Of a stretch of 54,312 nucleotides of DNA, positions 12,001 through 15,000 are shown one piece after another. This DNA comes from Candidatus Enterousia sp. GTDB lineage: Bacteria > Pseudomonadota > Alphaproteobacteria > Rs-D84. The stretch is taken from positions 1 to 54,312 of the forward strand of contig JAZLDK010000052.1 of the NCBI GenBank assembly GCA_045614725.1, read 5' to 3'. The position numbers are program-made. Within the stretch, counting starts at the first letter, position 1, and each line of letters starts with the position of its first letter.

Positions 12001-15000
12001 AATACGCGACGCACTTTCAAGGCAAGGCCCAGATACTTAATATCCTGTCTAAATTTATGAATGAATTTTGTGCGGGTCGCATGACACAAACCCAATCAAG
12101 GAATCAATCCATTCGCGATTGGATCGGTGTGTTGGATAAATATAAACTGGTGATTGTCTGTGGTTCCACGGCCAGTGTTCCCGCCACCGCTGATTTAATG
12201 TGCGCAGTCGCACATGCGCCACACGGCCGAATAATTTTATCTGGCAAATTGGACGGTCGCCCCCAAGATTTTGAATTAAACACCAATCCATATAATTCTG
12301 AATACAAATTTTTATCCCGCCTGGGTATTGATTACCGCGATTTAATCGCAATTGATGTCGGCCCATCCGCCATAGATTCCATGAATTATACATTTGGAAA
12401 CAACCCAGACAAACCAACCACAGATTTAGATTTATCACATTGTTGCCTGATTAATGTTCCGCGTGAATCGACCGAGGCAAATATCGTCGCCCAAATCGCC
12501 ACACACGCCATCGCCAACAAAAAATCCGTATTGGTAATTACACCGGATGCGGCCGGAAACCAGCGTATAGCGGCATCTTTGGCCGCCCACGGAATTATTG
12601 CCGACTTTTCGGGTGGCACCCCCGGAACAATGACACCGGTCGGTCGTGCGATAATAAATCTGTTTGATGATTGGATTGAAACGGGCAGTAATACCTTTGA
12701 CAAAATCTATACCGAAAACAGTTATGATTTCTTTAACACAATTGCCACGGTGGTTGAAATCAACCTGAACAATTTTGCCCCACAATTTACAATCGATGAC
12801 CCAACCTCTGTATTGATTTGGGGCACAATAAATGAATTGTCCGACGCATTAAAGGCCGCGGATTTGAAACTAAATCTGGCAGATGCACGCGCATTTTTAT
12901 TCGATTGTATTTCCGGCATATCTGTTCGTGGCGCAATGAATCCAGATGCCGATGTTGTTATTCTTGGCACAATTGAATCGCGCATGCAGACCGCAGACAT
13001 TGTAATTTTAACCGGACTTAACGAAGGAATGTTTCCTGCACGCGGATATGAAAACGCATGGCTGCCACGCAGTATTGCGGAAAAAATTGGCCTGCCATCC
13101 CCCGACAGAAAGGTATCCCTGCAATCCTTGGATTTTATGAATCTGTCGTGCGGTGATACGGTCTATTGGATTCGCAGTACACAATCTGGTGGCGTACAAA
13201 CGACCGAGTCCAGATTCCTGTCCCGAATAATTGCCCGCGGATATAAATTTGCAACCGATGACACAATCCTGCAAACCGTATTGGCGCGCGATAATGTCGC
13301 ACCAAATTCACTTGATTATTCCGCGCCAACACCGCCCGCGGATTGGTCCGATGTTTATGTGACGGAACTTGAACACCTGATACATAACCCATTTTCATTT
13401 TATGTAAAGCACATACTGCGCCTTAAAAAGCAGGACGATTATTGGACCGCACCCGATGCGCGCGACTTTGGGAATCTTGTGCATGCGGCATTGGAAAATC
13501 CGCGCGACATATCGCCCGATGCCTTGGTCCGCGACATGGATCGCCGCGCCCAGGAAAAACTTGGCAACAACAGTGTGATATATCACTTCTGGCACAAAAG
13601 ATTTTTGGAAATTGCCCCAATTGCCGCAAACGAATTAAGTGGTTTACAAAACTCATTCGCGGAAATAGACGGCAAAATAAAAATAGCGGGCCGAACCGTA
13701 CGTGCCCGTGCCGACCGCGTATGGGACGGTGGTGTATTGGATATAAAAACCGGCGCTGCACCAAACAAATCACAATTGGAACAAGGCAACATGCCACAAT
13801 TACCACTGGAAGCATTCATGTTGCAAAACGGCGGGTTCAGGTCGAACCTGCGCCCAGAAACACCGGTTATAAAATTCCTGCAATTAAAGAACGGGGATGT
13901 CCGCACAATCACATACGATGGCGACATATTAAAGAATATGATAAACGCGGCGGTTTTAAAAACAACCGAATTATTCAATATCTATTCCGCGGGCGGCGCA
14001 CCATATGAATACCGCGAAACAAACGACCAGAAATATAAACAGTTTGACGACTTGGCGCGTATCAAAGATTAACACACCACCAATTAGAATGATTTAGATA
14101 AAAACAAATCGGGCATCGTAGTGTACAAGCGCTACATGAGATGCTCATTACCCAACCCCTTGCCTGTTGTAAAAATAAATTAGAATGATTTAGATGTGGA
14201 ACGGTCCCGACAACGTAGTGTACAAACGCTACATGAGTTGTCGGGACCGCCCACAGATGAATTATTATAATTTATTTTATGGGTGGAAAGCAATCTGACA
14301 CCCCATCATCCGGACAACAGGCAAAATTAAGATTCCCCAGGTCCGTAAACTTTTCCCCCGTGCAACAACCAAATCGATTTGGTGATGTCCCGTCGGCGCA
14401 TAAACCCGCATCAAGATTTGCTTGTTTTTGTTCGTCACTAAGGATAACAGGCTCCGCAACTTCTTCAACAACTGTTTCAGCGACTGTTTCCATTATGGTT
14501 GTTTCTTCTTCACTGGCCACAACGGGTGCAACCACCGCACCTCTGCGCCCCGATGTTCTGCGCCCAGAAGCGGACTTTGCGCACACGCGACGATATTCGG
14601 ATTTAAGCTCGATTAATTCTTGGGTTGTTGTTTCATCCGGTGCCTCAATCGCCGACAATTCTGCAATTTTGGTCTTCATATCTGCACAGGATACGCGTTC
14701 GGCAACCACTGGTGCTTCTTCAACAACCGCTTGAACTTCTTCAGTCACATCCTGTACCTCTTCGGTCGCCAGCGCAGGCACGGTCAGCGCCACCCCCAAA
14801 ATCATCAGAATTTTTTTCATATGCACGCCTATTGTTCGTTAATGATTCTTTCAATTTCAAGAACAAAATCAATTGCCGGATTCGTCAGTTTTTTTACCGT
14901 TTCAAAAACTTCTTCGGCCGCCATTTGCATATTAAGACGCTTATATGTTTCTACAACCTCGGTTGTTTCCTGTTCATCAAATTCGTCATCTTCCAACGCA

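Follow-up and report, generated by a model that had tools for sequence, protein, structure and literature searches.

What is the hairpin element that lies, in four copies, between genes of the uncultured gut bacterium Candidatus Enterousia sp., and why should its tip stay constant while its stem changes? The DNA analyzed here, which we call the window, is a stretch of 54,312 nucleotides (contig JAZLDK010000052.1, assembly GCA_045614725.1), in which an earlier survey made without database searches (the sequence-only reading) had pointed out these copies. We find that they belong to a family of lineage-specific palindromic repeats of about 110-130 bp that is real, abundant and apparently undescribed so far. 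Three facts about this family are the most telling, and none of them was part of the sequence-only reading: its members occupy the slot of a terminator, they stand directly beside a stop codon, and their orientation relative to replication is nearly absolute. The account that we favor, and to which we give about an even chance, is one of lineage-specific palindromic repeats that sit in the terminator slot after the stops of leading-strand genes, work as a strand-asymmetric terminator hairpin, and spread by short-tract recombination.

The copies in the window, and the linker between two of them, are as follows.

4144-4258, + strand: copy A, complete, with AGAT at 4168-4171, left arm 4172-4189 (AAAAACAAATCGGGCATC), apex 4190-4212 (GTAGTGTACTTAACGCTACATGA, reading GTAGTGTAC-TTAA-CGCTACATGA), right arm 4213-4230 (GATGCCCGATTTGTTTTT), AGAT at 4231-4234 and right flank 4235-4256 (GAATTATTATAATTTATTTTTA); its outer left flank (4155-4167) is degenerate.
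14082-14147, + strand: copy B, truncated, with left flank 14082-14095 (AATTAGAATGATTT), AGAT at 14096-14099, left arm 14100-14117 (AAAAACAAATCGGGCATC), apex 14118-14139 (GTAGTGTAC-AAG-CGCTACATGA) and a right arm cut to 8 nt, 14140-14147 (GATGCTCA); the right AGAT and right flank are absent.
14148-14170, + strand: C-rich head or linker ahead of copy C (TTACCCAACCCCTTGCCTGTTGT).
14168-14282, + strand: copy C, complete, with left flank 14171-14191 (AAAAATAAATTAGAATGATTT), AGAT at 14192-14195, left arm 14196-14214 (GTGGAACGGTCCCGACAAC), apex 14215-14236 (GTAGTGTAC-AAA-CGCTACATGA), right arm 14237-14254 (GTTGTCGGGACCGCCCAC), AGAT at 14255-14258 and right flank 14259-14279 (GAATTATTATAATTTATTTTA).
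36238-36351, + strand: copy D, complete, with left flank 36238-36261 (AAAAAAATAAAAGATAATGGTGC), AGAT at 36262-36265, left arm 36266-36283 (GTGACTAAACCCGCCAGC), a variant apex 36284-36305 (GAAGTGTACAGAAGTTACATGA, reading GAAGTGTAC-AGA-AGTTACATGA), right arm 36306-36323 (GCCGGCGGGTTTAGTCGC), AGAT at 36324-36327 and right flank 36328-36349 (GCGCCATTAGATTTTATTTTTA).

The window thus holds three complete copies and one truncated copy, all on the + strand. The sequence-only reading had placed all four correctly, within limits slightly narrower than the true ones, and our map of open reading frames (ORFs) agrees with it that each lies between convergent genes: MnmE and an acyl-CoA-synthetase-like protein around A, an AddB-like PD-(D/E)XK protein and a 182-aa secreted-looking protein around B and C, and a 189-aa protein and T2SS-F around D. 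The right flank of every complete copy contains the stop codon, on the complement, of the gene to its right: 4254-4256 for the acyl-CoA-synthetase-like gene 4254-5885(-) at A, 14272-14274 for the ORF 14272-14826(-) at C, and 36347-36349 for the T2SS-F-like gene 36347-37438(-) at D. Copies A and B do share one 18-nt left arm, as had been noticed, and the arms of C and D are unrelated; within the window, neither the arms of C nor those of D occur anywhere beyond their own two positions. Folded as RNA, copies A, C, and D reach minimum free energies of -41.9, -56.6, and -65.4 kcal/mol (z = -8.4, -11.5, and -13.6), and none of 200 shuffles was as good. A terminal U-run had been credited to copy A only; in fact all copies finish in a AATTTATTTT run.

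An exact scan for the apex in one genome per species (pattern AGTGTAC-N3-4-MGY-TACATGAG) matched at least 118 loci. Among the matches listed, all but about seven chance matches are Candidatus Enterousia or other gut Alphaproteobacteria metagenome-assembled genomes (MAGs) of the order Rs-D84, from ruminants, humans, and other animals, and many of the loci carry two or three copies about 90-100 nt apart. A metagenome scan with a stricter pattern yielded 54 further loci. The relatives' loci gathered for comparison are referred to by L-numbers (L004, L110, and so on). A covariance model (R1) made from an alignment (A1) of 77 full copies, run with filters off at E <= 1, recovers precisely the three full copies and one truncated copy of the window, with scores of 95.1 bits (E 6e-21) for A, 33.9 bits (model positions 40-75) for B, 119.1 bits (E 4e-27) for C, and 116.2 bits for D. 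In 685 kb of related loci, the same model finds about 125 distinct copies, about 35 of which lack the exact scan pattern. What had been proposed from four copies is a genuine family, with hundreds of copies in relatives. Enterousia genomes are reduced, at 0.75-1.0 Mb (PMC12306168), so that four copies per 54 kb would correspond to some 60-75 copies per genome. At its gathering thresholds, Rfam identifies only five tRNAs in the window; at E <= 10 the B/C region matches plant miRNA precursors only, at 17-23 bits where 102-113 are needed. A full-text literature search returned no description of the family, and an apex scan of IMG/VR for a phage link gave two matches, both by chance and without a hairpin.

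Each complete copy is a single hairpin of about 45 bp. From the outside in, it consists of an AT-rich outer stem, an AGAT/AGAT step of tandem G.A pairs, an inner stem of 18-19 bp, and the apex, C-GTAGTGTAC-N3-4-MGY-TACATGA-G. The outer stem opens with an A-tract and closes with a T-tract, and a C-rich head may precede it; flanks of type 2 (AAAAGATAATGG / CCATTAGATTTT), to which those of copy D belong, hold a second AGAT/AGAT step. The sequence-only reading was right that AGAT faces AGAT, but its non-complementary internal loop is better written as A-U, G.A, A.G, U-A, that is, as a tandem sheared G.A step. The apex pairs in the order C-G, G.A, U.G, bulged A, G.U, U-A, G-C, U-A, A-U, followed by the loop C-A-N2-3-(C/A)-G-(C/U), which gives a 5-bp mini-stem (GUGUA/UACAU) closing a loop of 7-8 nt. 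Variants support this pairing: the U.G becomes C-G in four copies, U-A in two, and C.A in nine, and the closing G.U becomes G-C in L047 and L040. We rejected an apical 7-bp helix, GUAGUGU/ACGCUAC, suggested by the minimum free energy folding of single copies; it is not kept in the common AGAAGT loop variant, and both RNAalifold and the variants favor the 5-bp mini-stem. A kink-turn at the apex or at AGAT was also discarded on inspection, by the rules of that motif, given a U instead of an A at position 2b and an AGAT step that lacks the 3-nt bulge.

The covariation is strong. RNAalifold assigns 32 pairs to the 77-copy alignment, and 24 of these show compensatory double changes; in a full structure of 46 pairs specified by hand, double compensatory changes occur in 32. 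Paired cells of the latter make up 87.8%, compared with 71.0% in shuffles and 40-47% when partners are slid; doubly changed cells number 668 versus 240 +/- 16, and the covariation score is 0.472 versus 0.170. On each of the three measures, 0 of 500 shuffles reach the observed value. The earlier picture of conserved apex and flanks around co-varying stems, with selection on a single-strand fold instead of a primary sequence, thus extends to the family. All 60 AGAT...AGAT hairpins that were found without an apex criterion carry the apex with at most three changes, so the apex is truly the most conserved part and not just an artifact of how copies were gathered.

Where do these hairpins sit? Viewed in the orientation of the apex, the right neighbor is essentially always an ORF on the - strand whose stop lies 27-48 nt past the apex, within the right flank, and the element begins 0-3 nt after the stop codon of this abutting leading-strand gene. 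The left neighbor, at a variable distance, is on the + strand in 61 cases and on the - strand in 28; apparent ++ contexts at L011 and L109 proved on inspection to be ORF-calling artifacts. About 63% of copies stand at convergent junctions, compared with about 27% of leading-strand gene ends in the window, where 3 of the approximately 9 convergent junctions hold an element and the others plain terminators. In four orthologous comparisons (window copy A with L061/L007, L042 with L093, L106 with L020, and L048 with L116), the element-free site has a small bidirectional terminator (A-tract, GC hairpin, T-tract) at the same stop codon. The C terminus of the protein is unaltered between filled and empty sites, a T-run plus stop (TTTTTA) is common to both, and no target-site duplication or flanking direct repeat is seen in any of the four. 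The outer ends, AAAATAAATTA / TAATTTATTTT, are inverted and merge with A/T tracts that are present at the empty sites; all outer stems end in TTTATTTT, and about 60% of inner stems have A-tract/T-tract feet. A single orthologous site can carry different alleles in different species. Taken together, the orthologous terminators at the same stop, the differing alleles, and the A/T-rich stem feet indicate that the element probably does the work of a bidirectional terminator, with convergent junctions as its preferred place. In L088, L055, and L039, a candidate empty site first suggested that target DNA had been duplicated in inverted form, but a diverged copy that has decayed and recombined explains it better.

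Orientation follows replication. GC skew on the GTAGTGTAC strand is negative in 96 of 100 locus-orientations and positive in 1 (mean -0.18), the metagenome set repeats the bias (66 versus 1), and overall orientation tracks GC skew in >98% of copies; local skew is clearly positive in 2 of 186, both of which have an apex flipped relative to the flanks. About 30% of the genes in the window are on the lagging strand, yet no mirrored copies abut lagging-strand genes, and the rule is therefore tied to the direction of replication and not just to the neighboring gene. The elements themselves run against the surrounding skew: in 75 of 77 copies, the + strand has more G than C. On the GTAGTGTAC strand, the conserved non-Watson-Crick positions are G.A or G.T without exception. 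In the outer stem there are 116 G.T cells versus 25 A.C cells, at wobble positions that differ between the two flank types, in a pattern opposite to the one expected from leading-strand C-to-T mutation pressure. Because the conserved non-Watson-Crick positions are of these two kinds, the + strand folds better, in 76 of 77 copies and by a mean of -11.1 kcal/mol with RNA parameters or -4.6 with DNA parameters (Wilcoxon p = 4e-14). The weaker hairpin is that of the lagging-strand template and of the abutting gene's mRNA, and transcripts that move head-on to replication encounter the stronger one. The asymmetry may serve RNA, by polar termination, or DNA, by avoiding hairpin extrusion on the lagging-strand template.

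How did the stems come to differ while remaining paired? That both arms co-vary is real, but stepwise compensation or hairpin-templated repair mostly does not explain it: some 20 stem alleles recur across species, shuffled with flanks and loops, and apex chimeras can be broken. Left arms fall into about 21 classes shared among species, and a given stem class can be combined with either flank type, 1 or 2, and with several variants of the loop. The types of the two flanks agree in 58 of the 64 copies that could be typed, and flank types are more uniform within a genome than between genomes. Chimeras whose left and right arms come from different classes and meet at the apex occur in L030, L009, L022, and L105, and some are broken. 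The apex is flipped relative to the AGAT flanks, with ATCT...ATCT around a normal apex, in L015 (5149-5262), L091 (5050-5165), and L099 (5709-5822), which is the expected product of recombination between the two arms of one hairpin, and L004 equals L110 minus the DNA between two tandem apexes. Strain-level look-ups by exact neighboring protein mostly had no record to match and were informative for L121-L123: L121 has copy D with three substitutions, and L122, a contig encoding an identical 189-aa neighbor protein, has a different left arm at the D site. Mismatches and wobbles in the arms persist across species. Most simply, contiguous central tracts would have been moved by gene conversion or template switching, with end-points in short conserved blocks, selection keeping those products that pair; both arms would then have been exchanged together, in place of the earlier idea that both had changed together.

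Two terminator-like hairpins without an apex were seen along the way. One, at L029 2640-2700, has an unrelated 23-nt loop, and the other, at L063 1440-1470, is the one plausible apex-less case; their stems resemble family classes (AAAACGGGAATC / GATTCCCG and AAAACACCGGC / CCGGTGTTTT). The resemblance could be due to chance, or the hairpins could be copies in decay or a source from which stem alleles are drawn. Such same-stem, apex-less hairpins are too few to tell from chance, and we set aside the idea that the apex is a tiny element inserted in pre-existing terminator loops.

The tandem pair B/C is one case of an arrangement, truncated plus complete, that recurs in many genomes; the sequence-only reading had described this single example. 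In such arrays, all units point the same way, head to tail, and the sole complete unit is the one beside the gene. Each of the rest breaks off after 4-12 nt of right arm, as a rule at a C-run, and is fused to the conserved C-rich head of the next unit (ACCCAACCCCTTGC-N5-8, or ...CCCCACGATTAGCG, depending on the genome). Elsewhere a head motif, ACCCAACCCCTTGC-N5-8 (or ...CGTGATTAGCG), stands ahead of the left flank in 57 of 177 copies, inside arrays and at first units. Successive units share identical arms in L093, L031, L092, and L108. Slippage or unequal exchange, with the right arm's C-run as one partner and the C-rich head as the other, would give such truncations. The proposal that one element had inserted beside or into another is not shown, and the B/C junction also fits a rearrangement breakpoint. 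The close relative L123, whose 182-aa protein is 95% identical, has an identical copy C with its head and no copy B. In L026, a single element lies between convergent orthologs of two window genes, the AddB-like gene on the left side of B and the acyl-CoA synthetase gene on the right side of A; in the window, the same genes (11571-14072 and 4254-5885) lie 10 kb apart, next to copies B and A. Given these two loci and the arm shared by A and B, B is most simply the left half of an ancestral AddB/acyl-CoA-synthetase element that was split by rearrangement, and a transposition of C into B is improbable. It seems that synteny breakpoints are marked by elements.

A mechanism can be sketched from these observations. 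Each unit would be a bidirectional yet strand-asymmetric terminator or 3'-end hairpin. On the GTAGTGTAC strand, read by transcripts head-on to replication, the non-Watson-Crick positions are all G.U or G.A and the predicted hairpin is continuous, while on the complementary strand (the abutting gene's mRNA and the lagging-strand template) the same positions become C/A and C/U mismatches and the hairpin is predicted to be about 11 kcal/mol weaker. The apex, under the strongest constraint, is most likely a nucleation or recognition module for a putative factor. Spread and homogenization would proceed by short-tract recombination or template switching, of which the loci described above show a part, with likely end-points in the A/T tracts, in AGAT plus flank, and in the apex. 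Central tracts would be exchanged whole, so that the two arms of a stem move together. The same process may replace ordinary terminators and yield apex-joined chimeras, apex flips, inter-apex deletions, and arrays of 3'-truncated units.

Several points weigh against this account. Between the GC-rich inner stem and the terminal U-run lie 22-25 nt, a geometry atypical of intrinsic terminators, and a simple consensus terminator scanner does not call the elements. A terminator role alone leaves the near-invariant 23-nt apex and the >98% replication-linked orientation unexplained. Where the neighboring genes are in tandem (--), the better-folding strand has no gene known to transcribe it, and inner-stem mismatches show no strand bias (38 G.T versus 31-34 A.C). 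Near-identical strains gave no clean pair of empty and filled sites, and a first arrival at an ordinary-terminator site is not shown. Loci were gathered through the apex pattern, which inflates the apparent invariance of the apex, a bias lessened by the 60 hairpins found independently of it. Termination itself, and which strand matters, we infer.

Of the alternatives, a non-autonomous mobile element survives best, although we think it unlikely. It would move as single-stranded DNA when the replication fork passes, in the style of REP/RAYT or IS200/IS605-PATE or in a new one; an enzyme would recognize the folded apex, perhaps with AGAT, and insert the hairpin at A/T-tract terminator sites, the terminator role being secondary. 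A replication-linked orientation above 98% is the signature of elements that depend on single-stranded DNA, and the conserved non-canonical pairs of the apex form only in a single strand. A high-copy, extragenic, lineage-specific family, present or absent at orthologous sites, with flank types more homogeneous within than between genomes, would also be expected of such an element, and the lack of target-site duplications resembles Y1 transposition. The better-folding strand, however, is on the leading-strand template, not on the lagging-strand template, which is the one that IS608 and ISDra2 use. The host genomes are reduced, and recombination explains module shuffling and chimeras without a transposase. 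A crude and weak HUH...Y motif screen of all ORFs of >=100 aa in about 1.2 Mb of element-bearing loci (about 0.85 Mb plus 0.34 Mb) returned spurious or housekeeping matches only, with no HUH/Y1-like ORF. The RAYT/REP link that the sequence-only reading had floated on the strength of GTAG fails on defining features: the tetranucleotide is in the apex and not at the hairpin foot, the loop is conserved and not the stem, arrays are direct, and the well-folding strand is opposite to that of IS200/IS605.

Less probable again is a functional RNA module that a specific protein binds or a nuclease processes. It might stabilize mRNA 3' ends, be cut by RNase III/E, or act as a cis-antisense RNA on the abutting gene's 3' end, with the apex and the tandem G.A steps as protein-recognition features. 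Conserved G.A, G.U, bulge, and loop nucleotides are typical of RNA-protein sites, variants of the apex have C-G, U-A, or C.A for U.G and G-C for G.U, the element starts 0-3 nt after the stop codon, and a 45-bp duplex is a natural substrate for RNase III. No Rfam family supports it, with sub-threshold plant miRNA hairpins as the sole matches, and RNA function alone does not predict an orientation tied to replication over one tied to genes. Nor does the well-folding strand have a promoter that is consistent among copies: TTGC and TAGAAT stand 14-16 nt apart, and a -10-like hexamer is missing from some flank types. On the same grounds we rejected a promoter in the left flank (head TTGC with TAGAAT/GATAAT), which is absent as a motif from several flank types and would leave the covariation of the outer stem unexplained.

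A bolder version of the terminator account, which we regard as doubtful, makes the element a replication-oriented "polar insulator": its apex would be read by a putative dedicated protein, and the unit would spread itself as a terminator cassette, with templated copy-choice as the means by which ordinary terminators are overwritten. Its design would be a perfect hairpin on the strand transcribed head-on and an interrupted one on the lagging-strand template and abutting mRNA, in hosts that seem to be without transposases.

Guide-RNA precursors (pre-miRNA/crRNA-like), or arms kept identical by hairpin-templated synthesis, would account for a constant scaffold with a variable stem of 18-19 nt and for truncated array units that retain flank, left arm, and apex, but are highly improbable, since stem alleles are few (about 20) and common to several species, arm mismatches and wobbles that persist across species are not re-templated, the window stems have no other match in the 54 kb at <=3 mismatches, 11-mer matches elsewhere look like scattered unrelated coding sequence and decayed copies (about 30 by chance on a rough estimate, not a formal expectation), and no Cas, Argonaute, or TnpB-like gene is near the copies among the 10 window proteins scanned.

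To a gut lineage that is uncultured, poorly known, and reduced in genome, the family adds an abundant structured repeat; a density of four copies per 54 kb would make it about 1% of a 0.75-1 Mb genome. Its design is unusual among bacterial repeats in combining an invariant apex, allelic stems that come as matched pairs, tandem G.A steps, and strand asymmetry with a near-absolute replication orientation. If the asymmetry is functional, the elements offer a natural system for direction-specific termination and replication-transcription conflict; if their spread is enzymatic, they point to a novel hairpin-recognizing activity; and if the polar insulator is true, they would represent a novel sort of element, selfish yet functional. 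In practice, R1 can be used to mark terminators, the ends of operons, and the direction of replication in Rs-D84 MAGs.

One further site in the window may be a remnant of the family.

50052-50076, + strand: possible relic of a type-1 right flank (RF1), CGATGAATTATCTTTAATTTATTTA, about 20/24 identical to RF1 (about 83%).

The covariance model does not pick it up. On one side it adjoins the stop codon of gene 50070-51098(-), which is GDP-mannose-dehydratase-like, and ahead of it stands a small hairpin of the ordinary kind, GGGCCCCAACAACATTATCGGGGCC (50021-50045); the segment 50017-50076 may be a decayed element whose core was replaced.

Other features of these loci deserve mention. A second small palindromic repeat (e.g., TGTCACTCCTGCGCAGGCAGGAGTGGGG, CCCTGCCTTCGCAGGGATGACA, TGTCATCCTGCCACTTGATGGCAGGATCC, GGGTCGGGCCTCAGGATGACAGG) lies at L123 2190-2460, downstream of its copy C, and upstream of elements in L050, L024, and L118, and may be another REP-like family of Rs-D84 genomes. 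The window also contains an 85-nt inverted repeat, 85% complementary, at 7003-7087 / 30344-30428, 23 kb apart, with shorter repeats nearby (6965-6993 / 30435-30463 and 6883-6937 / 7066-7120). All adjoin tRNA genes (6734-6898, 30133-30203, and 30529-30600) and may be duplicated tRNA-flanking segments. G+C drops from about 0.43 to 0.29-0.36 at 44000-50000, across a 1548-aa ORF, 45286-49932(-), whose sole match, to Peptidase_M48, is short and N-terminal; the region may encode a large protein that is secreted or on the surface, or may be DNA of foreign origin.

Among known systems, integron attC sites and the PATEs of IS200/IS605 share with the family a folded single strand with extrahelical or non-canonical positions, structure over sequence, and a replication strand bias. 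PATEs bear sub-terminal hairpins for TnpA at either end, with the active strand on the lagging-strand template, and attC sites have R''/R' (RYYYAAC/GTTRRRY) and L boxes and extrahelical bases, in cassette arrays beside intI. Unlike them, the elements have a single central hairpin instead of LE/RE ends, no R/L boxes (GTTRRRY; no R boxes in the alignment), and no TnpA/TnpB or integrase seen nearby; copies are single, between core housekeeping genes, and the better-folding strand is the C-skew one (lagging nascent, or leading-template) in >98% of copies. Miniature inverted-repeat transposable elements (MITEs) are defined by terminal inverted repeats and a fixed-length target-site duplication, whereas the AGAT...AGAT direct repeat here is internal, and no autonomous insertion sequence with the same ends was seen in the relatives' loci or in the window, where 10 proteins were compared with Pfam. 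Closer in form are the MITE-like Correia elements of Neisseria, the enterobacterial ERIC, and the Rickettsia palindromic elements (RPE), also 100-150 bp, folded as one long hairpin, co-transcribed with neighbors, and dispersed in small genomes including those of Alphaproteobacteria (RPE); Correia hairpins are RNase III substrates and can terminate transcription. Those families, however, are conserved along their full length, with terminal inverted repeats and usually a TA or other target-site duplication (Correia), and RPEs also lie in frame in genes, whereas here no target-site duplication or parent insertion sequence was found, all copies are extragenic, and the stem modules are allelic in a replication-fixed orientation.

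Bidirectional intrinsic terminators share the slot at a stop codon, often convergent, and the order A-tract, hairpin, T-tract, and they alternate with the elements at orthologous sites. The hairpin here is four to five times longer, with a conserved 23-nt apex, G.A steps, sequence identity across loci, and an AT-rich stem that separates the GC-rich stem from the terminal U-run, which in an intrinsic terminator comes immediately after a stable GC-containing hairpin. With the REP, BIME, and REPIN sequences of Gammaproteobacteria, the family has in common a high copy number, extragenic palindromes at gene 3' ends and between convergent genes, a mosaic organization (as in BIMEs), a possible role as terminator or mRNA stabilizer, and concerted evolution within genomes. 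A REP is a 20-40-nt imperfect palindrome with a conserved stem and GTAG/GTGG 5' of its foot; here, in contrast, the apex is invariant, the stems vary, and GTAG sits atop a 45-bp hairpin. BIMEs and REPINs alternate inverted REPs, whereas the arrays here are direct with 3'-truncated units. A REP system also includes a cognate single-copy RAYT (Y1 HUH transposase) gene, usually with REPs on either side; the motif screen of about 1.2 Mb of element-bearing loci gave no RAYT. Near-absolute replication-linked orientation and systematic strand asymmetry are not known from REP descriptions. The element thus behaves as a REP/MITE-type hairpin that has taken over the terminator slot, with an architecture and a strand logic unlike those of any described family.

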